DNA of 64,000 nucleotides from Thermoanaerobaculia bacterium (GCA_963664405.1 OY761158.1:4352001-4416000); one strand, 5' to 3'; counted from the first letter of the stretch, positions 47,053-64,000 are shown. Translations and numbers: made by a program. Notes: generated by a model from the sequence alone, not told the origin.

Positions 47053-47128
47053 GCCGGCATAGCTCAGCGGCTAGAGCAGCTGACTTGTAATCAGCAGGTC
47101 CTCGGTTCGATTCCGAGTGCCGGCTCCA
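47053..47128 (+). tRNA. tRNA-Thr(TGT)
   Basis: GCCGGCA acceptor stem, GCTGA-CTTGTAA-TCAGC anticodon arm, GGTTCGATTCC T-arm, encoded CCA. Confidence 0.97.
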
Positions 47129-48171
47129 TCTAAATATAATGTTTTCATAACTTTAGGGATACTACGATCATTCGCAACTGTGGTAGCCGTATTTCTCGTA
47201 ATCGGTTCGTAATCAGGAAGAGGCGAAAAAGCTGTGCACAGATGGAATTCGCGGGCCCTTGGCCATAGCGGCCTGAATTGGGGCTGTTTGGCTGAGTTGG
47301 TGAGCTTGAGGTGAGCAAGGCCATCAGCCCTGATCCAGTGACGCGTCTATACCAAAAACTTGAAGCCCTACTGGTCCAAGGCTGTTCTGCGTTGTCTTCG
47401 CCGCCAGCCTTTCTAGACGATCGATCACATCCCTAAACTGGAGCACAGCTCGAGTGTCTGGATCGCGCCAGGTTCGATTTCCGTGGTGGGACACAACCAG
47501 CACCCCCCAGCGCCTCGAGGCCGGTTTCAGGTAGTTCTCGGCAAGCTGCTTAGTCAAGGCCGATTCGAGCCGGCGTACTGACCATCCCTTCTCTCTTCCA
47601 CCGTGCTTTACCTCAATCGCTGCTTCCGCAAGGGCAGCAGTTGCGGACACCACAATGTCGGGCTTGTTGCCACCTGAGACTTCGGTCTCGCGGTGAACGT
47701 GATAGCGACCGTTGGAGCGGAGCCTCACTTGCTCAGAGAGCCACTCTTGAACCTGGGCCTCGCTCTCCGCCTTTTGGAGTAAGTCTCGGGAGGACGAGTC
47801 GCCGCTTGTCATATCGTCTTGGACGTCCGAGAGAACGCCGAGCAACACGTTTAGGAGCCTCCCTCCAGTGGTTACTGGTGCTAGGTAAGTCCGCTCGAAG
47901 GCGGGAACCTCAGTAGCCTTCCACCGTGAGAGTGATCAGGGTAGTTGATGGGATTCGCCTCTGTTCTAGTCACGGTAGTCGAGGGAAGAGCGTACTGGTC
48001 CCTCGGATAGCGTGATCAAAGCGGGCAAAAGAGCCGGCATCATCCGCGGCCACCGGGCGCGCCGTTGTTGTGGGGGGGGAGTGAGGTGCCCTCCGGGGGT
48101 TGACGTCCCCTCGGAGGGCGTGTCTTCTTTCGTTGAATTTAAAAACGAAAGGCCGAAAGGAGACAGCCCTC

Positions 48172-48738
48172 TTGTACCAGACCCTGCTTCAGGATGCCAG
48201 TTTCTACGATCTACTGTTGCGACTCGACGAGGATCTAGCGGAGAAGACTCGCGCCCTAGGCTGCGAATGCGGTGGGCGTTTGCACCAGGCTCACTATCCA
48301 CGTAAGCCTCGCGGAGGGCCCGAGGAGCTGCGCAGAAGGACCTCGTTGCGGCTGAGCTATTGCTGCTCGGTGGAGGGGTGCCGGCGTCGTCAGACGCCTG
48401 CGTCCTTTCGTTTTCTGGGCCGAAAGGTGTACTTCAGCGTGTTGGTACTTCTGGTCCCAGTGCTGCGGGAAGGGGCCAAGGGAGAGCGGCTGCATCGTCT
48501 ACAGGAATTGTTTCAGGTGAGCGCACGTACGGTGCGCCGTTGGCAGAGATGGTGGCGAGAGGACTTCGGTCTCAGCCCGGTCATGACTCGCTTTCAAGGC
48601 TTTCATGCCGAGCCGATCCAGCGGCAAGACTTGCCGGGCTCTCTGCTCCTAGTCTTTCGTCAATTGTCGCCGGCAGGCGAGAGGGTGCTGGCGGTGATTC
48701 GCGCCCTATTGGTCGGGCCCTCTGTGCTAGCTGTGTGA
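48172..48738 (+). CDS. Transposon accessory protein (Cys/His-rich with HTH-like segment)
   Basis: CECGGRLH, SYCCSVEGCRRR, VSARTVRRW..WW; TTG start behind AAGGAG. Confidence 0.75.
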   Translation: MYQTLLQDASFYDLLLRLDEDLAEKTRALGCECGGRLHQAHYPRKPRGGPEELRRRTSLRLSYCCSVEGCRRRQTPASFRFLGRKVYFSVLVLLVPVLREGAKGERLHRLQELFQVSARTVRRWQRWWREDFGLSPVMTRFQGFHAEPIQRQDLPGSLLLVFRQLSPAGERVLAVIRALLVGPSVLAV

Positions 48739-48844
48739 GGGTCGCCGGAAACCCGCAGAAGATGCGTCTCGACTCGCCGAGAAGCGGGCCTTAAGGTCTC
48801 TGTTCTCGCCGCCGATTGAAGGAATCGGCGCCCAGGAGAGGGAG

Positions 48845-50269
48845 ATGAGCCATCGAGCCTCGACGCAACAACGCTGGGCGCAGTTTCGCTTCAGTGTGGT
48901 GGGTGAGCTGTTGGCTGCGCCTCCCGCACCGGGACATCTGCAGGTGGAATTGTCTCGACTCTCCCAGAAGGCCTGGCGCCATCCGATCACGGAGAAGGCG
49001 GTGTACTTTGCCCGCTCGACGATTGAGCGTTGGTACTACACGGCCCTGGCCGGTCGCGATCCGATCGGGGCGCTACAACGCCGATCGAGAAGCGACAGCG
49101 GCCAAGCGCGCGCCATCCCAACCCGGATCGCCGAGCTGATCCACACGCAATACAAGGCCCACCCGACGTGGAGCTACCAGCTCCATTGGGACAATCTGGA
49201 CGTGGTGCTAAAAGAGCGACCGGAGCCAGGGAAGGTGCCTTCCTACTCCACCCTGCGCCGCTTCATGATCGCGCACGGTTGGCCCAAACAACGACGCACG
49301 AAGGGAAAGGATCGCAGCACTGCCTCCGGTGCCCCTGCGCGCGAGAAGCGCAGCTACGAAGCCGAGTACGTCAACGGGCTCTGGCACCTCGACTTCCACC
49401 ACGGCTCGCGCAAGATCCCGAGCTCCGCAGGGACCTGGGAAGTACCGATGCTGCTGGCGATTCTCGACGATCACTCCCGGCTCACCTGCCATCTGCAGTG
49501 GTATCTGCACGAGACCGCCGAGTGTCTGATCCACGCTCTGATCCAAGCCTTCATCAAACGCGGACTGTGCCGCTCACTGCTCACCGATAACGGCAGCGCC
49601 ATGATCGCCGACGAGACCACCGAGGGGCTCCTACGCCTCTCCGTCGTCCATCGCACCACATTGCCCCGGAGCCCCTATCAAAACGGGAAACAAGAAAACT
49701 TCTTCTCTCGAGTCGAATCCCGCCTCCTCGCCATGCTCGAAGGACACGCGGATCTCAATCTGGCATTGCTCAATGAGGCGACGCTGGCTTGGGTGGAGAT
49801 GGAGTATCACCGCACCGTCCATTCCGAGACCGGCCAGACGCCGCTCGACCGCTTTCTCGAGGGTCCCTCCGTCTCTCGGATCTGCCCCAGCCTGGACGAG
49901 CTGCGCTTCGCCTTCACCGCCGCTCGAAAGCGCACCCAGCGCCAAAGCGACGGCACCATCAGCCTCGACGGCACCCGTTTCGAGATCCCCTCTCGTTTCC
50001 ATCATCTCAACCGGATCTCGGTGCGATACCAGAGCTGGGAGAAAAGCTCCGTCTTCATGGTCGACGAAAGCTCCGACGTCCCACTCGAGCGCCTCTACCC
50101 CCTCGACAAGGCAAGAAACGCTTCCGGCATCCGCCGCCCGATCCAACCCCAGAGCACCGACGAGCCGACAGGCCCGGAGCCTGGCATCGCACCCCTACTC
50201 CGCAAACACATGGCGGAGTACGCCGCCACCGGGCTCCCGCCCGCCTACCTCAAAAAGGAGACACCGTGA
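48845..50269 (+). CDS. DDE transposase/integrase with Mu-transposase-like C-terminal domain
   Basis: LWHLD, LTDNGS, NGKQE..F, DGTISLDG.RFEIP. Confidence 0.93.
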   Translation: MSHRASTQQRWAQFRFSVVGELLAAPPAPGHLQVELSRLSQKAWRHPITEKAVYFARSTIERWYYTALAGRDPIGALQRRSRSDSGQARAIPTRIAELIHTQYKAHPTWSYQLHWDNLDVVLKERPEPGKVPSYSTLRRFMIAHGWPKQRRTKGKDRSTASGAPAREKRSYEAEYVNGLWHLDFHHGSRKIPSSAGTWEVPMLLAILDDHSRLTCHLQWYLHETAECLIHALIQAFIKRGLCRSLLTDNGSAMIADETTEGLLRLSVVHRTTLPRSPYQNGKQENFFSRVESRLLAMLEGHADLNLALLNEATLAWVEMEYHRTVHSETGQTPLDRFLEGPSVSRICPSLDELRFAFTAARKRTQRQSDGTISLDGTRFEIPSRFHHLNRISVRYQSWEKSSVFMVDESSDVPLERLYPLDKARNASGIRRPIQPQSTDEPTGPEPGIAPLLRKHMAEYAATGLPPAYLKKETP

Positions 50270-51108
50270 ACAACCAGAAACTACTGGCACTCTTCGGACT
50301 GAAGTGGAACCCCTTTACCCCCAACATCCCCGTCGAAGCGCTGTGGCGACACCCGCATCTCGACCACTTCTGCTGGCGCCTGGAGACCCTCGTCCACGAC
50401 GGTGGCTTCGCATTGATCTCCGGTGATCCCGGCACCGGCAAGTCGGTCGCTCTACGCACCCTCGCTCACCACCTTCAACACCTGCCCGACCTGCGCACCG
50501 GAGTCCTCACGCGGCCACAGAGCAGTCTCGCCGACTTTTACCGTGAGCTCGGACAGCTCTTCGGGGTCCCGCTCAATCCACACAACCGATGGGCCGGATT
50601 CAAAGCCCTCCGACAGACCTGGCTCTCCCATGTCGATGCCACCCATCAAAGACCCGTACTCTTGATCGACGAAGCCCAGGAGCTCGCCGCCAACGTGCTG
50701 GCCGAACTGCGCATCCTCGCCTCTGCGGACTTCGACTCACGCTCCATCCTCACCGTCGTCCTGTGCGGCGACTCCCGACTCACACAGCTCTTCCGACGAG
50801 ACGATTTCCTACCCGTCGCCAGCCGCATCCGCGTACGCCTCCTCCTCGACTACCTGCCCCCAGAGACGTTGGCCGAATGGCTCCAGCACTCCCTGACACA
50901 AGCCGGAAACCCCAGTCTCCTCGACCACGAGGTCATCACCACTCTCGCCGAGCACGCCGCCGGAAACCTCAGAGTACTCGCACACATGGCCAACGAGCTC
51001 CTCGCCATGGCCGCCAAAGAAGAGCTACCCAACATCGATCAGAAGCTCTACCTCGAGGTCTTCTCGCCACCTACCTCCCAGCGCTCTCCCAGGAAAGCCC
51101 GTGCCTGA
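50266..51108 (+). CDS. ExeA-like AAA+ ATPase (transposition helper)
   Basis: FGLKWNPF, GDPGTGKS, VLLIDEAQ, GNLR; GTGA overlap with the transposase. Confidence 0.92.
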   Translation: MNNQKLLALFGLKWNPFTPNIPVEALWRHPHLDHFCWRLETLVHDGGFALISGDPGTGKSVALRTLAHHLQHLPDLRTGVLTRPQSSLADFYRELGQLFGVPLNPHNRWAGFKALRQTWLSHVDATHQRPVLLIDEAQELAANVLAELRILASADFDSRSILTVVLCGDSRLTQLFRRDDFLPVASRIRVRLLLDYLPPETLAEWLQHSLTQAGNPSLLDHEVITTLAEHAAGNLRVLAHMANELLAMAAKEELPNIDQKLYLEVFSPPTSQRSPRKARA

Positions 51109-51448
51109 CTCCCCATCCGCCCAGCAACAACGACGGCACCTCCAGAGCGTCCTCGAGCTCTATCGACGACATCCCCAAACCACCGGACGAGTCAGAAACG
51201 CCGATCGCCGCCTCGCCGTACATCTCTATCGAAACGGCGTTACCCTCGACACCATCAACGCTGCCTTACTACTCGTCGCCGCCAGGAGATGCAACGAGGC
51301 ACACACCACAACCCCCATCCAGAGTCTCCACTACTTCCTCCCCGTCATCCGAGAGATTCGCGATAGACCCCTCGATAACGGCTACCTCCGGTACCTTGAA
51401 ACTCTCATCCGCGACAGCAGCCAAGACCCAGACCATCATTTACTGTGA
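51101..51448 (+). CDS. Hypothetical protein inside the transposon
   Basis: 115-aa ORF overlapping the ATPase stop and ending at the right TIR. Confidence 0.65.
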   Translation: MPDSPSAQQQRRHLQSVLELYRRHPQTTGRVRNADRRLAVHLYRNGVTLDTINAALLLVAARRCNEAHTTTPIQSLHYFLPVIREIRDRPLDNGYLRYLETLIRDSSQDPDHHLL

Positions 51449-54400
51449 TCAGCCCGCCATCGATTACCGTGATCACTCTCACCACCGCGGAGGTTCAGCA
51501 TCCTGCTCTGCCTTCTCGCGTGCTAAAGCGATGAGGCAACTAGAGGACAGCGGGAAGCCCTTCTCCTCCGAAAGCGAAAGAACAGCTTGGTAGGCGTCTG
51601 GGCCTCGACGGTCAACAAGCGAAGAGAACAGTCTTTCACGGGCCCACTCGGCCTCATCCCTCTCATCAGGGCTATAGGCACCCTCGTGGACTGCGTCGTC
51701 TTTCGTGTTTACCTCTCGGTATGCGATGCGCACCAATGAAGAAAGCGCCGGAACCGACATAGAAGTGGGCGCCTCCGCTGCCAGGCCGAACTCTCGACCG
51801 AAAAGGACGGCCAAGCCTGCTTCCGTTGTAGCAGCCTTGGTATCGATCCACTTGATCAGCTGGGTCGTAGCCTGGTCGGTATCCGCCAGGAACAGCAGGG
51901 CAATAGAGCGTACAGCGCGATCGACATCATCGACCTTCAATGCTGCTCGAAATCGGCGGCGAGCGACCGCCACAACCCGACGCCTCTCCTCATCGGAGAA
52001 CTGCATTCGTCGCAGCGCCTGAATGCCTCGATCGAGCGCTCTCAGTGACGTCGCGTCCTCGCTCATCATGATCTCGAAGAGGGGGCCTTGTACAGAAGGA
52101 GGGAAGGGCGCACCCTTATCGCGATAATGGGTGAGCAGTTCGACCTGGCCCCCATCATGGCTTTTCCACTCATCTTCTAGAGCCTTGCTCACGACCGGTA
52201 GCACGGATACACCGCGTTGATCGATGAGCTTGTCGAGCCATTCGGGATAGCCCAGTTCACTCATGCAAGCGTGCCTTGCAGCGCAGGCGGCATCGGCGGC
52301 GCTGAGACCCGCTGGCCAGTTCGACTCCTCGCGAGCTTCGACCCCTATGCCTGCAAAGGAAAGGACGCTCGGATGCTTCCTTGAGAAACCACGATCGGTA
52401 CGCTCAGGGGCTTCAGGTCGTGTAATGCGCCAGAGCACCTTCATCCCTTCACAATAGGCCTCGGCTACGGTCCCGCCGAATGCCGGTGCCGGTGCCAGCA
52501 ATTGCCACTGCAAGGCTGCTTGCTCTGCGTTCTTTCCAGTCTTCTTCTGCAGCCACTGGGTTAGCCAGTAAAGTCTGGACGACCCTGTCTCCCAATCTGC
52601 CAATCGAGCTGGATCGGTTAGTCCGGCAGGGTCTGCTTGAAGCTCTTCCCTGAACCGGATCCACTGCGCCTCGGTCTCTTTTCTTTCCTCAGCCTCGCGG
52701 TCTTGCTTCTGTTGGGTGTTCCTTTCGTGCTCGAGCGCCGCTTCTAGCTCTGTCTCTGACGGAGGTGCGAGATAGCCGTCGAGATCGGCCGCCAGTTCAT
52801 TGCAGCCCGCAGCGAGCTCTCCTAGACGAGAGGATTCAGAGTCGAGTTCGCCAGCTGCGCGCAAGATTCGGGCGAGAGCGCTAAGAGCCACCTGTCGATC
52901 AGCAACCAGCGGGCGATGCGAGTAGTCTTCAAAGAGCCAGCCCACGTCATGGGGCCCAAGCTCCCATAGAACGTCACCGCACCCCCAGACATGCGAAAGC
53001 CTCGTTGGGTATTCCTCGGCGTGGCGGTTGTCGTTTAGCCGCGTCTCCTCGACGTCAGCCCAGAAAAGTGTGCGCTGCAGTTGCGAATCACCGGTCACGA
53101 GCGCTCTTAGGGCAGGTTCTTCTTGGTCCCAGTTGCGCTGACTGTCAGCCCGCTCGACAGCCATGAGGAAACGTACAAGCACTCCAGGGGGGTCAGCGTT
53201 CCCCATGTCTATAACAACGTCGCGAGCGATCTTTGCCATACGCCTTGCGATGCCGACGTGGCGAGCTGAGATACGTCCGTGCCTGGACTGGAAGGGTGGT
53301 GAGAGACTCAAGTCTGAGAGGCCGACGATCAGTCTCTCGCGTGCGTCTGAATCAGGGCAAACTTCCCACAGCTTCGCGACTTCGCTCTCGAAGCCACCTA
53401 ACGATCCTGGCTCCGCCGACGGCGTTAGCTCGACCAAGCGAAGCACCTCGTCGACATCAAGGTGTTCTGGAAAGAGAACCCCCACGAATTCCGGTGCGAG
53501 AACGGCACTCGCCGGACCGGCGGCTCCCTTCAACCAGCCTGCTGCTTGCCGTAACCCGTCGGTGTCCTCACACGCGCTGAGTGCCTCAAGCGCGACGATG
53601 CGAAAGTGGTCTCCGCACCCTTGGTCGACAGCTACTTTACGGGCGAGGTGGGCGCAGGCCGCTATCCTCCCTTCCCTCACGATGCGGAGGAGGTTTGTAC
53701 GGAAGAACTCTCGCTTGTTGAGACCCCAGCAGCGCTCGATGGTCGAGGCGAGTTCAGGGTCGGAGAACATCCAAAGGGCTCGTTCATCGGGAATGTAATC
53801 TGCCCTCCGGCCCTCCGGTCCCGCCTTCGCGTAATTGAGCAGGAGGGTCTTCTTTGCATCGAGGGGCAGCGAGCCCGGGTCTCCGTAGCGCAAAGCACGA
53901 TCGGTGCGCGTCGGATGATTTCGGCGCGGATGTCGGTCTGACTCAGCGACAGCCATGCTGCAGCGCCTTGCAGTGACGGTACGAGAGCTTCGACTCCGTA
54001 GACGTCCTCGAAGAGCAAGTCCTTCACAACGTGGCGGGGGCAGCCTCCCTCGAGGAGGCGTTTGAGCCAGCTCGCCATCAGGTACTCCCTAGTACCGCGA
54101 TGGTGGAAGCGGATACGCCCATAGGTGGCTTGCTCGAAGACGCCTCTTCGTAGCAGTGCATTCCGCTCCGCGTCCGTCCAGCTGTCGAGCACTTCGGCCG
54201 AATCAATGGCACCGGCAGCAAGCGTCGGATCAGCCTCTTGGCCCGATGCTCGAATAGTTGAACTCTTCACCAAGGCCAATGCAGCTGACAGTCGCTCGGC
54301 GCCGCGCCGCGATTTGTCGTTGGCGAGATCTCGGTTGTCTGCTCGGTATCGGTCGTGCTCACGCAGCTTCCGATTCACGCTGTTCTCGGTCATTCTCTCC

Positions 54401-55441
54401 AGGCTGTCAAAGCCGTTCCAGGCCTTCCAGTGCTCAGCGAGATCGAGAAGATCCCCCGGCCGTTGCGCCAGGTTGTCGAGCCCCTGCTGCACAATCGCTT
54501 GGACGAATACCGCAGGTTCCTCTGCTCCGGCACTCGCAGCAAGTAGCCGCATTTGTTCAGGATCGAGAGGCACAAGCCTGACCACCAGAGTGTCGTCGGC
54601 TTCCTCGGTACGCCGTGGTAAGCCGAAGACCGAGTTCGTCGGCACCTTGCTCCCAAATATGGGGCCGAGCAGATACGAATCGTCCTCCTCAGCGGAGATT
54701 GGAGCTTGCTCCTTCCATGCTGGTAGAAGCCGCCTGAATTCAGCTAGGTCGGTACGGCCCTTCCAGTCGCTTCCGCGACAAGAGATGTATACATGTGCAC
54801 GGTGTAGAGCTCCAGAGACTTCACGCGCAAAGTGCGACAGAGCTCTTTGCAGGCTCTTGCCATGGAGTTGCGCTTCATCTACAGAATCCAGAAAGAACCA
54901 CCCCTCCTCGCTCCCACTCTCCTTCCACTGCTCGAACTTCCTTGCTGCTTGTGGATCAAGGGCAGCGTCGAAGCCATAGTCGGCAAGGTCCTCGATGCGG
55001 ACGAAGAACCCCGACTTGCCCTCAGCGAGCAACGACGCTGCACGGTTCCGGAACTCCTCTGTCTTCCCGCTCGAGGCCTCAGCGAGCAACACCACGCGAC
55101 GGTGCGTGAGTAGGCCAGACCAGTGGAGCGAACCCGATAGCCCTAAGAGTCTGTGAACCTCCAGACTCCACTCCTCGTCCTTCTCAACACGAACGAAGCG
55201 ACGATCAAGTTCGACAAATTCCATACTGGAGGTCACCTACGACTCACTGTCTGGAATCCTCTCACGCCCCGCCTGGCAGCTGCACCGTCGCCCGCACCTC
55301 TTTCAGCATGCGCTCCGCGCTTTACACCTGCCAGCGCCATTCGCCACAATCAACTGGGCGAATCGAGCAATCGCGCAGACTCGCTGACTGCGGGTTCCCC
55401 TAACGATCGACGGTGGCGTACAGAGGGGGCGGCAGGAATCT

Positions 55442-56020
55442 ATGATCGTTTTCATCCAGGGCCCCCCAGCATCCGGCAAGTCGACACTGGGTATGGGGCT
55501 CAGCGCGAAGCTAAACATCCCCCATGTCAGCAAAGATGACATCAAAGAAAATCTGTTCGATTCATTGGGGGCGCGCGATGCCGCGTGGTCACGCGAGTTG
55601 GGGGCGGCGTCGAATCGACTGCTCTTCCTACTGGTGCGAAAGTACGCGTCGCTTTCGCGGGACATCATCATCGAGAGCAACTTCTCGAGAGATGAAGTAG
55701 CAGAAATCGAACGGACTCTCGCAGGCGGAAGTCAGGACGTCTGTGATGTGTTCCTGACTGCGCCGCCCGATGTACTGATGGCGCGTTTCCGGGAGCGCTG
55801 GGAGTCCGGGCGGCGTCATCCGGGACATGTGGACGATCAGCGATATGAAGACATCGAGAGCTACATTGCCGAACAGAAGTCGCGGCCGATGGGGCTCGGG
55901 ATAGTCCAGATCCGGATCAACACCGAACGCGAAGGCCCGGACTCCGTTCTGTCGACCGTACTTGCACAGCTCGCGGCGGTCGCCGCATCTCAGGGAGCTT
56001 CGACCGGGCCCAGCAAATGA
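55442..56020 (+). CDS. P-loop small-molecule kinase (AAA_33-like)
   Basis: IQGPPASGKST, SKDDIKE.L, IIESNF, R...R...RHPGH. Confidence 0.85.
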   Translation: MIVFIQGPPASGKSTLGMGLSAKLNIPHVSKDDIKENLFDSLGARDAAWSRELGAASNRLLFLLVRKYASLSRDIIIESNFSRDEVAEIERTLAGGSQDVCDVFLTAPPDVLMARFRERWESGRRHPGHVDDQRYEDIESYIAEQKSRPMGLGIVQIRINTEREGPDSVLSTVLAQLAAVAASQGASTGPSK

Positions 56021-56790
56021 AGCTGACCATGCAGCAGGATGCTATCGGGCAGGCAGTCTATGACTGTTATCGGGGGCTCGGCGGGTACGAGATCATCGAG
56101 CGCTCCGATGGCTTCATCCAGGAAAGTGGCGGCCCCAGGATCTACCTATCCGAGTATCGATCTTGGCCACGCTACCAGAAGCTCGCGCTTCGGCACGTGA
56201 GTGGCCGTGTGCTCGACATTGGCTGTAATGCCGGCAGGCATGCCCTCTACCTTCAGGAACGAGGCCACTCCGTCCTGGGTATCGACATCTCGCCGCTCGC
56301 AATCAAGACCGCCGGCCTGAGGGGCCTGAAAGCAAGGAGGGTCCTCCCGATCACGGGTGTTAGCAGGCACTTGGGATCTTTCGAGACCATTTTCCTTCTC
56401 GGTAACAACTTTGGCCTCTTTGCCACTTGGGCGCGAGCACGGTGGCTGCTACGCCGCCTGAGGACGATCACCGCGGAGGATGCTCGCCTCATCGTAGAAA
56501 GCCTGGATGTGTACCGGACGGACGAACCAGAGCATCTCGAATACCAGGCAGAGAATCGCAGACTTGGCCGGATGAGCGGTCAAATCCGGATGAGGGCTCG
56601 ATACAAGCAGTTTGCCACGCCCTGGTTCGACTATCTGATGGTGTCGCAGCAGGAGATGGAGTCCATTCTTGAGGGAACGGGCTGGATCACCAACCGGTTC
56701 TTCAATGGACCTGGTGGCTCGTACGCCGCTGTCATCAAGAAAGAGACATTAGGGACCCCTACTTGCGCCCCAGTTGCGTCGAAGGAGTAA
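56017..56790 (+). CDS. Class I SAM-dependent methyltransferase
   Basis: VLDIGCNAGRH, GIDISP, LLGNNFG; ATGA overlap with the kinase. Confidence 0.88.
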   Translation: MKLTMQQDAIGQAVYDCYRGLGGYEIIERSDGFIQESGGPRIYLSEYRSWPRYQKLALRHVSGRVLDIGCNAGRHALYLQERGHSVLGIDISPLAIKTAGLRGLKARRVLPITGVSRHLGSFETIFLLGNNFGLFATWARARWLLRRLRTITAEDARLIVESLDVYRTDEPEHLEYQAENRRLGRMSGQIRMRARYKQFATPWFDYLMVSQQEMESILEGTGWITNRFFNGPGGSYAAVIKKETLGTPTCAPVASKE

Positions 56791-57200
56791 GATCAGAGCT
56801 GGCCTATAGGGCCGGACCCCCCGGTCCACGAGCGGCAGGGAAGCCACGGCGGGACCCCCCGCAGCCAACCCTGCCCAGTTTCTCTGCCGCCGTTCTTCGC
56901 GAGCCCCGCCCCCGATCGGGATCGCGAGCCCCCAACAGAGCCTCCCACCTGCGCCCCGGTTGCGCCTAGGGGCCGTATGCTGAGGTGTTCTCACGAAAGG
57001 ATATCTGTGTCTTGGGTTAGAGAACCGTGCTCGGCCAGGCCGCACCAGAGCGTGGGCTCCACTACCACCGGCTGTTGCTTCTGGAGAATCCGAGCGACGT
57101 GGCCCGAAACCTCGCCCGCCATCGCCTGGCCGGCGTCGTACTTCTCCCGGAAAGTGAAGCGAGTGGCCTGCGAGTCCATCCGAATGGGACGATAGTCGCC

Positions 57201-57848
57201 ATGCTGCGGACACCCCAGCGTCCCGGAGCTCAACCGTCGCCGACCGCGGCCACCGCGCTGAGCTACGACCGCATAGCCGACGACTACGTGAAGCGCAACC
57301 GGGACCGATCCGCTATGGCCCCGGCCATGGACCGGTTCGCGGCGCAGCTCGCACCCGGCGCGCTCGTCGTGGATGTCGGCTGCGGGCCCGGGTTCGACGG
57401 GGTGCTGCTTCGGCAGCGCGGGCTGCGGGTGATCGGGGTGGACCTGTCGGCGGGGATGCTCGCAACCGCGCGGGAGCTCTTCCCCGGCGTATTCGTGCAG
57501 GGCGACCTGCGACGGCTGCCGCTGTCGCGGCGCGCGGACGGGCTCTGGGTGAACGCGTCGCTGTTGCACGTGCCGCGGGACGAGGTGCCGGTGGCTCTGG
57601 AGGGGTTCGCGGGGGCGCTGCGGCCGGGCGGCGTGCTGTTCGTCAGCGTGAAGGCGGGGGACGACGAGGGCTGGGAGGACGAACCGGCGTACGGCGATCC
57701 CCGCTGGTTCACGTACTGGACCGAGGACGCGCTCGACGCGGCGTTGGCCAGCGCCGGGTTCACGGTGACCGACGGGCGGACGAACCCGTCGCCGTTGGGG
57801 CTGTGGATCCTGCGGGTAGCGCATTTCCGCGGGCCGGGCTCGGCGTAG
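57201..57848 (+). CDS. Class I SAM-dependent methyltransferase (very high GC)
   Basis: YD.IA..Y, VVDVGCGPG, GVDLS..ML, ASLLHVP, LRPGG.LFVS. Confidence 0.88.
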   Translation: MLRTPQRPGAQPSPTAATALSYDRIADDYVKRNRDRSAMAPAMDRFAAQLAPGALVVDVGCGPGFDGVLLRQRGLRVIGVDLSAGMLATARELFPGVFVQGDLRRLPLSRRADGLWVNASLLHVPRDEVPVALEGFAGALRPGGVLFVSVKAGDDEGWEDEPAYGDPRWFTYWTEDALDAALASAGFTVTDGRTNPSPLGLWILRVAHFRGPGSA

Positions 57849-58105
57849 CGGACGTGATCACCTTGTGCGTCCTTTCGCGCGACGCAACCCGGGCCCCGCG
57901 TCCTGAGTCGGACTTCGACTTCCCGGTCGCTGCCCGAGATGAGCTGTTCGCCCTTCCAACCCTCTCGTCGTCCCGGCAGGGAAAGTGCCATCTCGCTACT
58001 TGCTAGGACGCGCTCCTCGAACCGAGGGAAGACTACAGACGACAGACGATGACGGTCGAGTAGGGTGTACACAGCAATAAAATGCACGACTGAAGGAAAC
58101 CACGA

Positions 58106-58513
58106 ATGAAGAGACGTCATGGAAGCTGTCTTTGCGGCGGTGCAAGGTTTGCGATCACCGGCGAGATTCGGGGGGTCGGAAGTTGTCACTGCTCGAAGTG
58201 CCGCAAGGTGTCTGGGACCGGAGGGAACGCTCAGTTCATTGTTCCAAGAGACAGCTTTCAGTGGCTTCGGGGTGAGTCGGATGCCATGACCTTCCAACGC
58301 GATGACGGCTGGAGCGTGTCTCGCTGCAACACCTGTGGCAGCCCACTACCTCGTAGCTATGACGGACAACGGTTCTGGGTCCCTGGGGGCCTGATGGACG
58401 ACCCGCTCGACACGGACGTGAAGAGGCACATCTTCTGCGCTTCAAGAGCAGACTGGGATCGAGAGTCAGAGACTGCCGAGTACCACGATGAATACCCGCC
58501 AGCGCTCAGCTAG
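58106..58513 (+). CDS. GFA-family protein
   Basis: GSCLCG, CHCSKCRK, CNTCGS, HIF..S.ADW. Confidence 0.92.
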   Translation: MKRRHGSCLCGGARFAITGEIRGVGSCHCSKCRKVSGTGGNAQFIVPRDSFQWLRGESDAMTFQRDDGWSVSRCNTCGSPLPRSYDGQRFWVPGGLMDDPLDTDVKRHIFCASRADWDRESETAEYHDEYPPALS

Positions 58514-58582
58514 CATGGCCTAGGCTCCGACAACTTGTTCCTTTCACCTTTCCCTTTGGGCTAGTGTTGGTGCGAGCAGAGA

Positions 58583-59311
58583 ATGTCTATCTCAAGGGAG
58601 AGCATCAAGGGACTGTGCTTCGATTTCGGCAATACGCTCGTGGAATTTGGACCCAGGCAGGTAGCCGCACAGTACGAAACATTTGAGCGAACGTTGACTG
58701 GCCTGTTCGGTCCCTGCGACGCAGCGCGCTTCAAGGCCGTGCGAGATCGCCAGCGCGCTGCCCCGCTCAGCAACGGCTATAAGGAGAGCGAATTGACGTC
58801 GCTCTCGCAGGAGTTGATTCGGGAGCTCTATGACGCGGAGCCGGACGAGAACCACATCGAAGTCCTAAATCAGACGCGTTGCGATTCGGTAGCTGATGCC
58901 ATTGAACTTAACGATGAGGTGTTGCCGCTCTTGCGCGAGCTCCGGCGGCGGTACCGCCTGGGATTGTTGTCGAACTACCCCTGCGGTCGCTCTGTTCGCA
59001 ACGTCCTCGCCAAGGTGGGCCTGTTGGACATCTTCGAGGTGGTTGTGATCTCGGGCGATGTCGGGTACGTGAAGCCTCACACCAGGCCGTTCGAGGCCAT
59101 GTTGTCGCAGATGGGCCTTGCCCCCTCGGAGTGTCTATACGTCGGCGACAACTGGCTGGCGGATATTCAAGGGGCAAAGCAGATCGGGATGCGGGCGGTT
59201 CTAACGACTCAGTACACACCCCACACAATCTTCAAGCCCGTGGTGGGCGATCACTTACCCGACGCACGCATCGCACACCTAGACGAACTTCGGGCGCTGC
59301 TTCTGAGCTGA
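58583..59311 (+). CDS. HAD-superfamily hydrolase
   Basis: FDFGNTL, LLSN, KP, YVGDNW.ADIQGA. Confidence 0.9.
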   Translation: MSISRESIKGLCFDFGNTLVEFGPRQVAAQYETFERTLTGLFGPCDAARFKAVRDRQRAAPLSNGYKESELTSLSQELIRELYDAEPDENHIEVLNQTRCDSVADAIELNDEVLPLLRELRRRYRLGLLSNYPCGRSVRNVLAKVGLLDIFEVVVISGDVGYVKPHTRPFEAMLSQMGLAPSECLYVGDNWLADIQGAKQIGMRAVLTTQYTPHTIFKPVVGDHLPDARIAHLDELRALLLS

Positions 59312-59334
59312 GACTGGGCCGCACCGATTCCTCT

Positions 59335-59396
59335 ATCGCATCCGCTACCACCTTCCGCTAGAGAAGGCGCCAACGCCCATCGCAAGCTTCCACCAG
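59335..59396 (+). repeat. Palindromic ~30-bp site, cluster 1 (one full unit plus degenerate flanking units)
   Basis: CACCTTCCGCTAGAGAAGGCGCCAACGCCCAT, 31/32 identical to 59924-59955. Confidence 0.85.
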
Positions 59397-59581
59397 TCCG
59401 GTCGCGATCAGAATCACCGCTGTCAGAGTCGCCTGGAGGACGAGCAGCGACTGCTGCGCCCCGAGCGTTCCGAATAGGCGACTTTGTCGCTTGTTCCTCA
59501 GACGCTCCGTGGAAAGACGGATTGGAAACCCGCAGTCCAAACCTCGTGGAGAGTCCTGGGGTAGCCGGTCGGCGAGAGGTG

Positions 59582-59707
59582 TACCTTGATGGCGACATCC
59601 CGCTCCAGGCGTGTGTCACGACCCAGGTACACCTCTCCCATGCCGCCCTTGCCGCGCAGCTCGACGATCTCGTAGGGACCGAGGCGTGTGCCAGCTCCTA
59701 GAGCCAT
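59582..59707 (-). pseudogene. N-terminal 42-codon remnant of a eukaryotic-like Ser/Thr protein kinase
   Basis: MALGAGTRLGPYEI....GKGGMGEVY...DTRLERDVAIKV, then loss of similarity. Confidence 0.88.
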
Positions 59708-59839
59708 GACTTGGCGACATCTTACCCGTCGCCCGACGGGATCAGCGGGGCTCGATCTAACGTGTCGCGAAGGACCACAAACTACGACAGCGATCTCCGC
59801 TAGCCCCCGTAGTTATTGCACTCTTGGGCCGCCCCGGGG

Positions 59840-59868
59840 AGATTTTGCGACACCGTGTCGCAAAATCT
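59840..59868. promoter_or_regulatory. Perfect 29-bp palindrome, possible operator
   Basis: AGATTTTGCGACAC-C-GTGTCGCAAAATCT. Confidence 0.6.
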
Positions 59869-59919
59869 GCGAAGGTGCGACACCCCCGCTTCCGACAGCG
59901 CAACAAAAGTACCCTCGTC

Positions 59920-59984
59920 ATGGCACCTTCCGCTACAGAAGGCGCCAACGCCCATGGCACCTTCCACTAGAAGACGTGACAACT
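59920..59984 (+). repeat. Palindromic ~30-bp site, cluster 2 (two tandem units)
   Basis: ATGGCACCTTCCGCTACAGAAGGCGCCAACGCCC followed by ATGGCACCTTCCACTAGAAGACGTGACAACT. Confidence 0.85.
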
Positions 59985-60126
59985 GACCGAGTCTCTGGAG
60001 TATGGTCTATCAATGCCCGGCGGGCGCTATTGAGACAAGCCGCTCTCGGCCATCGCCTCTCGCACCTGCTCGCCGGCAAAGTGAGTCGTGTCATTGAGCA
60101 ACGGTGCCGGTTCGGTGTACTCGCTA

Positions 60127-60906
60127 TCAGGTAGCAACAGAGAGTTGTAGCACCAGCTCATTCCCGTCGCCGAATGCCTCGCCCTGATAGCCGCCCCAAG
60201 TGCTCACGATCGCGAGCCCTTGGTCTCCCACCAGCTCGGCAATCTGATCTGGATACCAGCAGCGCATTGTGATTGGCATCGTGAGTTCCTCTAGTAGTTC
60301 GTCGCCGCGATACCGTCGGAAGACGAGCTCCGGGTACAGCACCAGCCTCTTCGCGTCCATTCGCGGCCGCCGATCTGAACCGACGATGCGCTCGTCTCCG
60401 ATCCATCGTTCCCACTCAACTGTCTCTTCTTCTCGAATCCATCCGGCACGCAGCGCGTCCGGGTCTTTCAAAGGCTTGAACATCGTCAATACACAGGAGC
60501 CGGAAGGCTTCATGTGTTGGCGCAGGCAGCGAAAGAAGCCTGCCACCTGCTCGTCCGTCTCCAGAGCCTGGAATACTCGGTACGGCGCCAGGACAAGATC
60601 GAACGTGCGGCCGAGGTCGAAATCCGTAATGTCGGCCTCAATCAGACTGATTCTGCGCTGAACGTCACCTGGTAGGCGGCGGACCTTTCCCTCTGCAATG
60701 TCAAGCATGGCCCGCGAGAGGTCGATACCGACGGCTGAGCCACACAGCTCCGCCAACTCGAGGATCACCCGACCGGTCCCACAGCCGAGCTCCAACAGGG
60801 AGGTTCCTCGGGAAGTGATGAGATCTCGGTAGAAGGGGACGTCTTCGTCGAAATCCTGAAGATCATAGAACTTCGCGGCGCCGCTGCGTTGGTCAACTGT
60901 CTTCAT
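60127..60906 (-). CDS. Class I SAM-dependent methyltransferase
   Basis: AKFYD....EDVPFY, LELGCGTGR, GIDLS..ML, FDLVLAPY. Confidence 0.9.
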   Translation of the reverse strand: MKTVDQRSGAAKFYDLQDFDEDVPFYRDLITSRGTSLLELGCGTGRVILELAELCGSAVGIDLSRAMLDIAEGKVRRLPGDVQRRISLIEADITDFDLGRTFDLVLAPYRVFQALETDEQVAGFFRCLRQHMKPSGSCVLTMFKPLKDPDALRAGWIREEETVEWERWIGDERIVGSDRRPRMDAKRLVLYPELVFRRYRGDELLEELTMPITMRCWYPDQIAELVGDQGLAIVSTWGGYQGEAFGDGNELVLQLSVAT

Positions 60907-60951
60907 TGAGTTCTCACGATTGTATGCACGACGGCTCTACGATGCGCTGGG

Positions 60952-60982
60952 CTGTCGTCTTCCACTACAAGACGTGCCAACT
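60952..60982 (+). repeat. Palindromic ~30-bp site, cluster 3
   Basis: CTGTCGTCTTCCACTACAAGACGTGCCAACT; the last 24 nt match 59961-59984 at 22 positions. Confidence 0.8.
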
Positions 60983-61089
60983 CAGCGTTTCGCCGGAGAG
61001 CCCACTAAAACCAACGCGTGAGAAATCTGACCAACAAGCTCACCCCAGATAGCGAGGGAAGAAGAGCCGTGGCGATCAGAATCATGCCC

Positions 61090-61998
61090 TCACGAGCAAG
61101 AGGTCAACGGAAGGTAGCGACGTATCCGCTCAAGTCCACTACTCACTCGCTTCGGGTGGTTGTCCAGGTAGCCGTAGTGGACCTCGCCGACGGCGATCAT
61201 GATGGCCTTGTGTTCAAGCCAGCGCCACTCGTCATCATCCGGTTCCGCGCCATAGGTCCAAAAGGCACGCGCCGCGCACTCACGACCGCCCGCGTAAAAG
61301 AGACCTCCGAAGTCGGCACTTCGGATGGTGGTGCAGGCATCGGCCCAGTCGATGATGCCGGCCAGGGCGCTCGTTGCCGGGTCCACGAGGATGTGGTCTG
61401 CTAGCAGATCTGCATGCGCCAGCACAAGCGGCACTTCTGGTTCCGGCGGCAAGGGGTCCTGGAGGTAAGCGTCGAGCCGCCTGCGGAGCGTGGCAGAGTA
61501 CGCATCGGCGGAATGACGGAATTCGCGCAACGCCCACTGGCTGTAGTCCTGTCCTGCCCAGGGGCTCGGGACCTCAGTTGCGATGCGCGCCCGGTGCAGG
61601 ACGGCTAGAAACTCACCGACTTCTGCTGCGACGTCGTTGAGGATGGCGGCATCACTAATGTCAGTGAGGGGCGTGCCGCTCAGGTATCTGTAGGCTGCGA
61701 AGTGCCACGGAAATTCCGCGAGCGGGGAGCTGAAGTACTCGAACCCTGGCACCGGGACGGGCAGCGGCAGATTGTGCATCCGCTTGAGTATCTCCCGTTC
61801 CCGGACGAGCACGCCATCGCACTCGGCGCGCTTCGGAAATCGTAGGACCCATTCGCCGTCGGCGAGGTAGCTGATGTAGTCGAACCCCTCGGCCAGTTTC
61901 TCGACGTCTGCGCAGCGTATACCGAAGGCGCGGCGCGCGAGCGCCCCGGCACGGTTGGGCTCCAGTTGGAGCTCCGCCGCCCACGGGAAGTGGGTCAT
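61090..61998 (-). CDS. Aminoglycoside-phosphotransferase-like kinase
   Basis: EGFD, WVLRFP, P.PVP, FLA.LH, Brenner motif HADL...HILV, GIIDW.D. Confidence 0.88.
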   Translation of the reverse strand: MTHFPWAAELQLEPNRAGALARRAFGIRCADVEKLAEGFDYISYLADGEWVLRFPKRAECDGVLVREREILKRMHNLPLPVPVPGFEYFSSPLAEFPWHFAAYRYLSGTPLTDISDAAILNDVAAEVGEFLAVLHRARIATEVPSPWAGQDYSQWALREFRHSADAYSATLRRRLDAYLQDPLPPEPEVPLVLAHADLLADHILVDPATSALAGIIDWADACTTIRSADFGGLFYAGGRECAARAFWTYGAEPDDDEWRWLEHKAIMIAVGEVHYGYLDNHPKRVSSGLERIRRYLPLTSCS

Positions 61999-62500
61999 GG
62001 GTTTGCCATCCTGCCCGTTGAAGGCGCTCGGGAGATGCTGCCCGCCCGACGCCTTGTTGAAAGGGAGAGCTGAAGAGCCACTTAATTGTGATAGCGAGAC
62101 GGCGCGCCTAGCAGGCCAACGATTCTAAGAGAGTGATCACGTGTTGATGGCTGCGAGAAAGCGCATCCCGTTGGCTGCGAGCGCAGTTTCCGGGATGGAG
62201 TGAGCTGAGGGCTTCGCGACCGCGGGAAAGCTAGGCCTTCTTCAGGAAGGGCGGCATCATCCCGCCGGAACGGCGGTCCGGGTGCGTGGTCCCGGCGGCG
62301 TGTTTGCGGTCGGAAGAGATGCGTGAGTCGGTGTAGGGCTTTGCAGTGCGGGCTCTGCTCTGATAGAGCAGGCCGACCAGAGACGGCGAGAGCCCGGGAA
62401 AGCGAAGTAGAAAACGCCCCGGGCTCTGCCCCAAACCGCAGCATTAGCTGCGCTTGCAGTATGGCAGAGAGTCGGGGTCGTCGTCGAATGGGAGGCGACG

Positions 62501-62896
62501 ATGCGACCGGACTACCGACTCTTCGACTGTGCTCGATGCCGTCGGCGTATCTCGCTGTGCTCGCACTGTGACCGTGGCCAGCGTTACTGCCGGGCTTGTG
62601 CTCTGGTGGCTCGTCGGGAATCGACTCGGGCGGCCGGCCATCGGTACCAGCGAAGCCTCCGAGGTCGGCATTGTCATGCCGCCCGTCAGGCCCGCTACCG
62701 TCGGCGCCAGCGCGAGCGGGCAGAGAAAGTGACGCATCAGGGTACCCCAGGCGGTACTTCGGGGAGGACACTGTGTCGGATCGAGACTCCGAGGCGCGAA
62801 GTGCGCTACGACCCGAGGAATCCGCGATGCATGCAGTGTGGAGAGGCCTGCCGAGAGTTTGTGCGAACGAGCTTTCGTCGTTGCCGACGGAGATAG
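62501..62896 (+). CDS. Cys-rich putative zinc-finger protein of the element
   Basis: CARC...CSHCDRGQRYCRAC, ARQARYR, KVTHQG, CMQCG. Confidence 0.75.
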   Translation: MRPDYRLFDCARCRRRISLCSHCDRGQRYCRACALVARRESTRAAGHRYQRSLRGRHCHAARQARYRRRQRERAEKVTHQGTPGGTSGRTLCRIETPRREVRYDPRNPRCMQCGEACREFVRTSFRRCRRR

Positions 62897-62900
62897 GGGC

Positions 62901-64000
62901 GTGATCGACGCACAGCTGCGCGGGGAGATCCGTCGTCTGTTCCTGGTCGAGAAGTGGAAAGTCGGCACGATCGCTCGACAGCTACAGCTGCACCCCTCAA
63001 CCGTGCGCCGGGCGCTGGAGAAGTCCGGCGTGCTACCCCAGCAGCGACGAGGGAGGATGATCGATCCTTACCTGCCGTTCATCGAGCAGGTGCTCGGGAC
63101 CTACCCACGACTGCCGGCGAGCCGTCTCTACACCATGGTGGTGGAGCGCGGCTATCCAGGAGGCCCGGATCAGTTTCGCCACCTGGTGGCCTCGATGCGA
63201 CCGAAGCCCCAGCGCGAGGCGTTTCTCTCGCTGCGCATGCTGCCAGGAGAGCAGGCGCAGGTCGACTGGGGCCACTTCGGTCGGCTCCGCGTCGGCCGGG
63301 CACATCGTCGGCTCTATGCCTTCGTCTTCGTGCTGTCGTTCTCGCGCACGGTCTTCGTGCACTTCACCCTCGACACTCGTCTCGAAACCTTCTTGCACGC
63401 TCACCAGCTGGCCTTCCACTACGTCGACGGCGTCGTCAGGACCGTTCTGTACGACAACCTGCGAACCGCGGTGATCGAGCGGCAGGGAACCGCGGTGCGC
63501 TTCCATCCCGTGCTGCTCGATTTCGCCAGCCACTACGGCTTCCTTCCCACCGTCGCCGCGGTGGCTCGGGGAAATGAGAAAGGCCGCGTCGAGCGCGCAA
63601 TCCGCTTCCTGCGAAGCTCGTTCTTCGGCGCCCGAACGGTGAGCGATTTGGATCGTCTGAATCGGCAGGTCCTGGAATGGTGCCAGAGGTCGCAGCGCAG
63701 ACCCTGGCCGCAGGACCGACAGCGAACCGTGAAAAGCGCCCTGGCCCAGGAACGACCTCGACTGCTTGAGCTTCCCGGAGACGACTTCGAAACCGACCTG
63801 CGACTGGAGATCAAGGTCAGAAAGACGCCGATCGTGCGCTTCGACCTCAACGACTACTCGGTGCCGCACAGTCATGTGCAGAGGACCGTCACGCTCCTCG
63901 CCAGCGAGCATCGGGTGCGGATCCTCGATGGCCAGGAGCTCCTCGCCGAGCACCCTCGCTCGTACTCCCGGGGCGAGCAGATCCTCGATCCTCAACACCT
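62901..64000 (+). CDS. istA: IS21-family transposase IstA (3' end outside window)
   Basis: Manual translation from GTG 62901: MIDAQLRGEIRRLF...TIARQL..H.STVRRAL, PGEQAQVDWG, YDNLRTAV, NEKGRVER, FDLNDYSVP. Confidence 0.92.
   Translation, partial: MIDAQLRGEIRRLFLVEKWKVGTIARQLQLHPSTVRRALEKSGVLPQQRRGRMIDPYLPFIEQVLGTYPRLPASRLYTMVVERGYPGGPDQFRHLVASMRPKPQREAFLSLRMLPGEQAQVDWGHFGRLRVGRAHRRLYAFVFVLSFSRTVFVHFTLDTRLETFLHAHQLAFHYVDGVVRTVLYDNLRTAVIERQGTAVRFHPVLLDFASHYGFLPTVAAVARGNEKGRVERAIRFLRSSFFGARTVSDLDRLNRQVLEWCQRSQRRPWPQDRQRTVKSALAQERPRLLELPGDDFETDLRLEIKVRKTPIVRFDLNDYSVPHSHVQRTVTLLASEHRVRILDGQELLAEHPRSYSRGEQILDPQH

Follow-up and report, generated by a model that had tools for sequence, protein, structure and literature searches.

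Two transposons of separate families in a Thermoanaerobaculia genome share a small accessory gene and a subterminal hairpin motif

Introduction

Insertion sequences of the IS21 family are described, in the available text of PMC10122671, as carrying two open reading frames (ORFs), L1/L2 and R1/R2 repeats, and 5-bp repeats. Tn6049 is a 3.5-kb transposon with 12 copies in Cupriavidus metallidurans CH34, always with a gspA-like ATPase (PMC2864759, in its available text), and for its copy in pHS87a inverted repeats of 12 bp and direct repeats of 4 bp are given (PMC4739549, likewise). Here we analyze a stretch of 64,000 nucleotides from a Thermoanaerobaculia bacterium whose genome is a single contig of 6.78 Mb with 62.6% GC. 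This stretch, G000:C1:4352001-4416000 of that contig and hereafter the window, holds a Tn6049-type transposon that we call EL1 and, with a spacing of 10.6 kb, an IS21-family element, IS21-A, which extends beyond the window end at 64000.

Very probably EL1 and IS21-A are independent transposons, both active and multicopy, which belong to two known families, move each on its own ends, and share an accessory module made up of a small gene, ORF4, and a hairpin. The ORF4 proteins are homologous, the hairpin stem covaries, and motif and ORF4 occur together across lineages. Our proposal is that ORF4 and the hairpin act as cognate partners within a portable accessory module, the function of which we infer below. 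Genomes and loci are designated by G and L numbers; the phylum comparison set comprises 401 genomes, and a wider motif scan used one genome per species.

Results

ORF4, a small gene common to both elements

ORF4 comes last in both EL1 and IS21-A, in each case overlapping the end of the ATPase gene at its stop codon. In EL1 it encodes 115 aa (51101-51448, plus strand) with an 8-nt overlap; in IS21-A it encodes 118 aa, and its ATG overlaps the istB stop as ATGA. The two proteins are clearly related (BLASTP E 2e-15, 41% identity over 78 aa). A profile search returns at least 853 relatives at E<=1e-3 among 8000 candidates scored, none with a Pfam domain and all the named ones 'hypothetical'; the ESM Atlas likewise returns only clusters named 'hypothetical protein'. 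ORF4 matches are found in 30 of the 401 phylum genomes, a count that includes G049, often in 5-11 copies. When the surroundings of 20 such matches were inspected, 17 had istB directly upstream, with IstA identity down to 25%, and the other three were EL1 in G164, one short contig, and one weak host homologue.

The AlphaFold2 (AF2) model of ORF4 is a five-helix bundle with a predicted local distance difference test score (pLDDT) of 87.8; Foldseek finds no match to it in the PDB at E<=1e-3, and a PDB profile search gives nothing below E 1.9. A tblastn search of 72,556 plasmids yielded no ORF4 homologue, and no relative of the EL1 ORF4 was found in metagenome contigs. The fourth ORF of the pMOL30 copy of Tn6049 shows no homology to ORF4 (hhalign probability 0.2%), and downstream of the ATPase genes of four other Tn6049-like elements of the phylum (ATPases 50-58% identical) there is no ORF4-family match (E > 0.04); ORF4 is, on these comparisons, not a general Tn6049 gene. 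In a midpoint-rooted tree of 48 rows the EL1 ORF4 groups, at 98/99 support, with four database proteins whose context is unknown, and this clade sits among istB-linked clades, a placement that fits acquisition of ORF4 and the motif by the EL1 lineage from an IS21-type element.

Several unusual members of the family were seen. In G230, istB and ORF4 occupy one open frame of 501 aa (L041 917-2422, minus strand), either a fusion or a frameshift; in the paralogues L042 and L048 the two genes are separate and ORF4 has an N-terminal extension of ~110 aa. In G296 and seven genomes of a sister genus, a single-copy host ORF of 272 aa (L026 1078-1896, minus strand) matches positions 1-80 of the ORF4 profile weakly (E about 1e-6 to 1e-8); as read from translations, it adjoins biotin-ligase-like and tRNA-synthetase genes and is not in a transposon. 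Large expansions of ORF4-bearing elements occur in G401 (at least 51 ORF4 matches) and G403 (at least 45), the records behind L073 and L085.

A covarying hairpin near the ends of the elements

The original prediction singled out CGGCATCATCC in both leaders (at 48035 and 62252), and this is indeed the longest word that they have in common. As a bare word it is weak, since a shared word of at least 11 nt with either leader turns up in 2-4% of random genome segments; it is, however, part of a conserved subterminal motif in which CATCATC(C) runs straight into a GC hairpin with a stem of 6 bp and a loop of 3 nt. The copy in IS21-A (62255-62276, plus strand) reads CATCATC plus CCGCCG-GAA-CGGCGG and scores 36.6 bits with a covariance model, and the copy in EL1 (48038-48061, plus strand) reads CATCATC followed by CGCGgCC-ACC-GGgCGCG, an imperfect 7-bp stem with one G-G mismatch. 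The sequence CCGGG(C/T)GCG, noted earlier as a second word common to the leaders, is present in both (CCGGGCGCG at 48053-48061 and CCGGGTGCG at 62278-62286) but in non-equivalent places: it covers the hairpin loop and 3' arm in EL1 and lies just past the hairpin in IS21-A.

The motif is carried by IS21-A, by IS21-B (a second IS21 family in this genome), by IS21 relatives elsewhere (L036, L037, L038, L040 and L043), and by a miniature inverted-repeat transposable element (MITE). Some 15 extra genome matches to the last 51 nt of EL1 revealed this MITE, which is derived from EL1, is 477 bp long (L066 38-514; G000 410937-411413), has the ends TGAGAGTGAGCACGATAATCGATGG, and retains the hairpin motif as well as the two termini; roughly 8 of its copies are complete, and roughly 7 others measure 349 nt. 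Its first ~145 nt are homologous to the EL1 leader, with CGGCATCATCC at the same distance from the end. In a distant IS21 lineage (L047, L053 and, weakly, L052) one to three motif copies lie just past ORF4, at the right end and on the other strand. The motif always reads 5' to 3' inward from the nearer end, the arrangement typical of DNA sites at transposon ends.

Stem sequences vary (CCGCCG, CCCGCC, CCCACC, CGCACC, CGCGCC) while pairing is kept. Across 13 instances 92.3% of cells are paired, with double changes in four of the six pairs, values that none of 500 shuffles reach, although some of these instances are related to each other, so that the shuffle count overstates the support; slid controls are 26-58% paired. 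A covariance model, R1, built from 11 canonical instances without those of EL1 or IS21-B and used to search 221 kb, gives the EL1 motif 19.4 bits (E 0.005), more than any other hit once the training instances and their close copies are set aside, and the IS21-B motif 13.9 bits (E 0.19). The exact form, with offset 0, a 6-bp stem and a 3-nt loop, is found among the 1772 CATCATC sites of the genome only in IS21-A copies or fragments and in MITE copies. At gathering score, Rfam reports tRNA only between 47000 and 64000, and no family for the motif. The leaders of Tn6049 (L054) and of an ORF4-less relative, L186, do not contain it; of the other ORF4-less relatives, the L185 leader is covered for 69 nt only and the L188 leader is unplaced.

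The motif marks ORF4-bearing transposons in a wide scan

For the wide scan we used the pattern CATCATCCNCNCCGNAGGNGNG, for which ~70 chance matches are expected from the size of the database; its two N-N pairs provide an internal control by which paired and unpaired stems can be compared. Among the matches listed there are 82 instances in 80 loci, 49 with fully complementary stems and 33 without. An ORF4-type transposon context surrounds 34 of the 42 testable fully paired instances, and 1 of the 33 unpaired ones. The paired instances include 14 in IS21-type loci in the order motif, ORF1, istA on the same strand; 16 in IS21-type loci where the motif lies beside ORF4, followed by istB and istA on the opposite strand; and one in an EL1-type element (L100; ORF1 58% and transposase 60% identical). 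None of these arrangements is seen with an unpaired stem. Three paired instances and one unpaired lie beside an ORF4 or an IS21-type ORF1 detected by hidden Markov model only; seven paired and no unpaired instances have less than 400 nt of inward sequence, at contig ends; and nothing was detected beside eight paired and 32 unpaired instances. In all five of the left-end-type IS21 loci that were checked, ORF4 is present ~2.9 kb downstream on the same strand.

EL1, a transposon of the Tn6049 type

The interval 47927-51481 (plus strand) had been taken as a complete element, and this is borne out: EL1 is 3555 bp long with TG..CA ends, and BLAST against the genome finds 5 copies with 99.5-100% identity, each with its own target duplication. 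As read from the flanks, the duplication of the window copy is 6 bp (CCACCG, 47921-47926 and 51482-51487), and those of the other four copies are 5 bp (CCGGA, CTCCT, CTCAG and AGGAC). The left terminal repeat, TGAGAGTGATCAGGGTAGTTGATGG (47927-47951, plus strand), and the right, TGAGAGTGATCACGGTAATCGATGG as read on the minus strand (51457-51481), form an imperfect 25-nt repeat with an alignment score of 35, against a shuffle mean of 12.8 and with none of 1000 shuffles equal to it.

Between these ends lie, all on the plus strand, ORF1 (48172-48738; 188 aa, with a Cys/His cluster and a weak match to the Pfam family HTH_23), the DDE transposase (48845-50269; Pfam rve), a GspA/ExeA-like ATPase (50266-51108; Pfam AAA_22, E 1.9e-22), and ORF4. 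The nearest NCBIfam model of the transposase is IS481, at 123.6 bits under its 224-bit cut-off. By tblastn the transposase matches 148 plasmid records, with 48.4% identity to genes of C. metallidurans pMOL28 and pMOL30 and of P. aeruginosa pHS87a. Compared with the pMOL30 copy of Tn6049, ORF1 is 42% identical (E 2e-35), the ATPase is 56% identical, and the gene order is the same. By its size, multicopy state, gene order and protein identities to Tn6049, EL1 is a Tn6049-type transposon with different end sequences. Beyond the 5 copies, EL1-type proteins are not found elsewhere in the genome, save for one short ORF1 fragment.

EL1 is inserted ~5 codons before the natural stop of an ORF of 825 aa and of no known family (51479-53956, minus strand), and the reconstructed empty site has an open frame that stops just beyond the junction. 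A tRNA-Thr (TGT) gene lies at 47053-47128, ~800 nt upstream of EL1, and downstream of it are long ORFs without a Pfam match (825 and 519 aa) and then a run of small enzyme genes (kinase-like, methyltransferases, HAD, APH-family). This region may be a tRNA-linked island; Tn6049 is said to associate with islands in the available text of PMC2864759.

IS21-A, a four-gene member of the IS21 family

BLAST of 61500-69000 against the genome places the bounds of IS21-A at 62141/62142 and 65531/65532, giving an element of 3390 bp (62142-65531, plus strand; L001 142-3531). The genome holds 21 complete copies at ~100% identity, one that is right-truncated, one that is interrupted, and fragments. Target duplications are 5 bp in 18 of the full copies, 6 bp in one and absent in two; the 6-bp case is the window copy, where junction reading gives ATCACG at 62136-62141 and directly after the right end, past the window. 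The element has its own ends, TGTTGATGG.. and TGTTACCGG.. (in a longer reading TGTTGATGGCTGCGAGAAAGCGCA.. and TGTTACCGGCTACGAGAAAGCGCA.., with the right-end repeat given as TGTTACCGGCTACGAG..). The left terminal repeat (62142-62185, plus strand) begins TGTTGATGGCTGCGAG.., and the word GGCTGCGAG recurs ~24 nt further inward at both ends, in the manner of L1/L2 repeats. The alignment of the left and right ends scores 41, equalled by none of 1000 shuffles.

The gene order is ORF1 (62501-62896, plus strand; 131 aa), istA, istB and ORF4. From a GTG start at 62901, istA runs past the window end (62901-64000, plus strand). IstA scores 245 bits with NF033546 (cut-off 160) and contains the Pfam domains rve and Mu-transpos_C_2; IstB, encoded directly downstream, scores 210.6 bits with NF038214 (cut-off 200) and has DnaC among its weak NCBIfam matches. 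The core machinery, the ends and the duplications (5-6 bp in 19 of 21 copies) are those of the IS21 family, while the two ORFs of that family are here four. IS21-A is thus an IS21 member by core machinery and a variant by gene content, with four conserved ORFs.

IS21-B has the same four genes in 3326 bp and is present in 7 copies with 5-bp duplications; it is 50% identical to IS21-A in IstA, 60% in IstB and 40% in ORF1, and its ORF4 overlaps the istB stop as GTGA. In a third IS21 family of this genome, the IstA of which is 26% identical, there is no ORF4 by tblastn and no motif.

A small Cys-rich ORF opens each element, as was originally noted, but the two ORF1 families are unrelated (BLASTP E 2.3, hhalign probability 0.07%). 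The EL1-type family comprises 1879 clusters at E<=1e-3. The IS21-type has 232 homologues, none with a Pfam match, and eight Cys in an invariant pattern; it was detected only in the clade close to IS21-A and IS21-B. The AF2 model of the IS21-A protein (pLDDT 82) predicts a zinc ribbon and a helical hairpin, and Foldseek finds no match to it in the PDB at E<=1e-3.

Two IS21-A copies, at genome positions 5444194 and 6746429, are inserted at different offsets in the same repeated host word (ctggggcaccctgaacggcc), and another, at 2646767, lies within an IS21-B copy. G164, a genome from another family of the phylum, encodes IS21-A with 100% identical proteins and EL1 at 99%, and lacks the locus that flanks them in the window (L034, L046); this suggests recent horizontal transfer of both elements. 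In G164, IS21-A is inserted in the EL1 transposase gene near codon 39.

Discussion

Each element on its own ends

The original prediction joined the two elements into one composite family, in which IS21-type and Tn6049-type modules lie inside common GAGAGTGATCA.. ends and EL1 is the single-module form. The strings on which this was built are all present: GAGAGTGATCA lies exactly at 47928, at 51470 (minus strand) and at 62129, and GAGAGTGATCACG, at 62129-62141 on the plus strand, is identical to positions 2-14 of the EL1 right end and adjoins TGTTGATGG, giving a match of 21/24 to the EL1 left end. The sharing of ORF4 and of the leader motif would also agree with a single family. The boundaries do not, for the IS21 element does not start with a shared end at 62128-62150; its own end, set by 21 copies, begins at 62142, so that GAGAGTGATCACG is host flank outside the IS21 element, and the apparent 22-nt end match is 13 nt of host flank plus the GTTGATGG of IS21-A itself. 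In local alignments (1000 shuffles, p 0.09-0.96) the IS21-A ends proper show no similarity to those of EL1. The proposed genome-wide tie between the end motif and istA is not seen, as GAGAGTGATCACG lies in the flank of 1 of the 21 IS21-A copies and is absent from those of the other 20; no right-end partner occurs within 40 kb downstream at one mismatch or fewer, nor an inverted partner of GAGAGTGATCACG in the 6.5 kb beyond IS21-A at three or fewer. Beyond 64000 the rest of istA is followed by istB, as had been predicted, and then by ORF4 and the IS21 right end rather than by homologues of the EL1 ORFs at 48172, 48845 and 50266. Since IS21-A has ends of its own, and GAGAGTGATCACG has neither a downstream partner nor an association with istA, the composite reading is refuted and we give it practically no credence; nor is EL1 a reduced form of such a composite, each element having its own ends and duplications. 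A link between the two does stand, through homologous ORF4 proteins and the CATCATC-hairpin rather than through common ends. The 13-mer beside IS21-A is then chance or a relic stub. A stub of an EL1-type end that predates the IS21 insertion is possible, if somewhat unlikely. Other EL1 stubs do exist in the genome (27 nt of the left end at 4480057, 113 nt of the right end at 395820), and a terminal match of 13 nt would fall exactly at an IS21 junction with a naive chance of ~1e-3 or less, registers allowed for; yet the similarity goes no further than 13 nt, A stands in place of the terminal T, the reconstructed target runs into unrelated intergenic DNA upstream of an APH-family gene, about 0.2-0.3 copies of such a 13-mer are expected genome-wide from composition, and the remaining two stray GAGAGTGATCA occurrences seem fortuitous, one being in a tetratricopeptide repeat (TPR)-like coding region.

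Three further points concern this site. A preference of IS21 for EL1-like ends finds no support, the logo of 26 IS21-A and IS21-B insertions having no consensus (at most 0.45 bits per position). The genome site 2882760, where GAGAGTGATCA and CGCATACGA occur as at the window site, was rejected as chance; by reading the DNA it lies inside a TPR-like coding region. The orthologous empty site of the window IS21-A copy was sought in G164, where the locus is absent.

What ORF4 and the hairpin may do

ORF4 is the sole accessory protein common to three motif-bearing groups, namely the left-end IS21 clade, the right-end IS21 clade and EL1, and on this account we propose that it and the hairpin are cognate. 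Whether they are instead passengers with no relation to each other, ORF4 acting on a host factor or in anti-defence or regulation while the hairpin is a site for the transposase, the ATPase or some host protein, has to be weighed against that exclusive sharing and against the fact that the ORF4-less lineages covered also lack the motif. The position of ORF4 beside two very different transposase/ATPase pairs argues for a common target, which need not be the motif, and some ORF4 lineages have no canonical motif; still, we find unrelated passengers a rather doubtful explanation. The hairpin might otherwise act as RNA, a 5'-leader element of the operon mRNA that is bound by ORF4 or another factor and so autoregulates translation or stability. 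This would agree with the motif's place on the coding strand between the left end and ORF1 in EL1 and in the clade of IS21-A and IS21-B, and with covariation of a kind typical of RNA structure. The second IS21 clade decides us against it: there the motif lies past ORF4, at the right end and on the opposite strand (16 scan instances together with L047, L052 and L053), so that the mRNA strand carries a different sequence, and the inverted layout relative to the ends is like that of a DNA site; Rfam, too, has no family for it at gathering score. A role as RNA therefore seems distinctly unlikely.

Under our preferred reading of ORF4 and the hairpin as a cognate module, we regard it as evenly balanced whether ORF4 recognises the CATCATC-hairpin. 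In DDE transposition with TG..CA ends, the strand that has its 5' end at the terminus is the non-transferred strand; because the motif reads inward from the end, the CATCATC word and the hairpin would lie on that strand, which after strand transfer would be the lagging-strand template. A hairpin there might help the transpososome/ATPase complex to form or might recruit host priming and helicase loading, and such action as DNA on the non-transferred strand is a tentative suggestion that we hold to be rather unlikely in this specific form. More speculative still, and quite improbable, is a scheme in which the ORF4/hairpin pair moved between two unrelated ATPase-dependent DDE families, the hairpin extrudes, and ORF4 uses it as a primosome or helicase-loading site. 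ORF4 would here be a helix bundle like DnaD or RepB'-C, co-produced with a DnaC-like ATPase, and the element would carry its own replication-restart signal. A priming or helicase-loading role would fit the kinship of IstB and DnaC, the weak DnaD/RepB'-C signals of ORF4, and the strand.

Several points weigh against these conclusions. To our knowledge replicative transposition has not been established for IS21, a point that weakens the idea of priming. The fold matches of ORF4 lie below the noise of helical bundles (VIA-align: AAA+ lid Z 7.3, DnaD-like Z 5.9 and 5.4), and its RepB_primase_C (PF22448) signal falls below the gathering score (18 of 54 ORF4 members, best E 6.7e-4). ORF4-bearing IS21 lineages without the canonical motif exist (L041/42/48, L044, L045, L050). 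The scan counts refer to the matches listed, 80 loci with flanks out of 118 stretches, and ORF4 was checked in 5 of the 14 left-end-type loci of that scan. The direction of ORF4 transfer depends on a midpoint-rooted tree. It is also odd that the 13-mer is placed directly against the IS21 end, where chance alone would seldom put it.

Novelty and significance

The two element families are already known, and it is the combination of ORF4 and hairpin that is new relative to the sources searched: the literature searched held nothing on a third or fourth IS21 gene or on a shared ORF4 and hairpin module. IS21 serves as the structural model for the control of a DDE transposase by a dedicated AAA+ ATPase, in descriptions that give it two genes; the IS21 elements reported here, a widespread and mostly environmental set, have in addition a conserved protein and a covarying hairpin site. 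The recurrence of this pair in a single lineage of Tn6049, an unrelated family, suggests that ATPase-dependent transposition has a third component, and a portable one. ORF4 and the motif also let annotators recognise these elements of 3.3-3.6 kb and their MITEs.

Comparison with known systems

In single-strand initiation (ssi) systems, the C-terminal domain of RSF1010 RepB' acts with ssiA/ssiB, and DnaD-type domains act with loaders of the DnaC/DnaI type. A small helical ORF4 beside a DnaC-like IstB, and a single-stranded word next to a short GC hairpin, recall these systems, whereas all similarity is below threshold and neither EL1 nor IS21-A has a primase; we also know of no replication role for IS21. 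Mu, Tn7 and Tn5053-type elements combine an rve-type transposase with a regulatory ATPase, TG..CA ends with internal repeats, and duplications of ~5 bp. EL1 and IS21-A likewise pair a DDE transposase with an ATPase and have TG..CA ends and ~5-bp duplications, but they are of insertion-sequence size and lack a TniQ/TnsD-type targeting protein or a resolvase.

EL1 is closest to Tn6049, with which it shares a length of ~3.5 kb, a multicopy state, and the gene order ORF1, IS481-like transposase, gspA-like ATPase and small ORF. It differs in its ends, TGAGAGTGATCA.. where TGTGCaTaAGCA has been published, and in its duplications of 5-6 bp where 4 bp have been published, as far as the available text of the Tn6049 accounts goes; furthermore, the fourth gene of Tn6049 is not homologous to the EL1 ORF4, and Tn6049 is without the motif. 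In their available text, PMC2864759 and PMC4739549 make no mention of a fourth gene or a motif. IS21-A, in turn, is like IS21 and IS5376 in that its IstA and IstB score over the family cut-offs, its TG..CA ends contain repeated sub-sites, and its duplications are of 5 bp, and it is set apart from them by a length of 3390 bp and four genes, with the Cys-rich ORF1 upstream, ORF4 downstream, and the hairpin in its left end.

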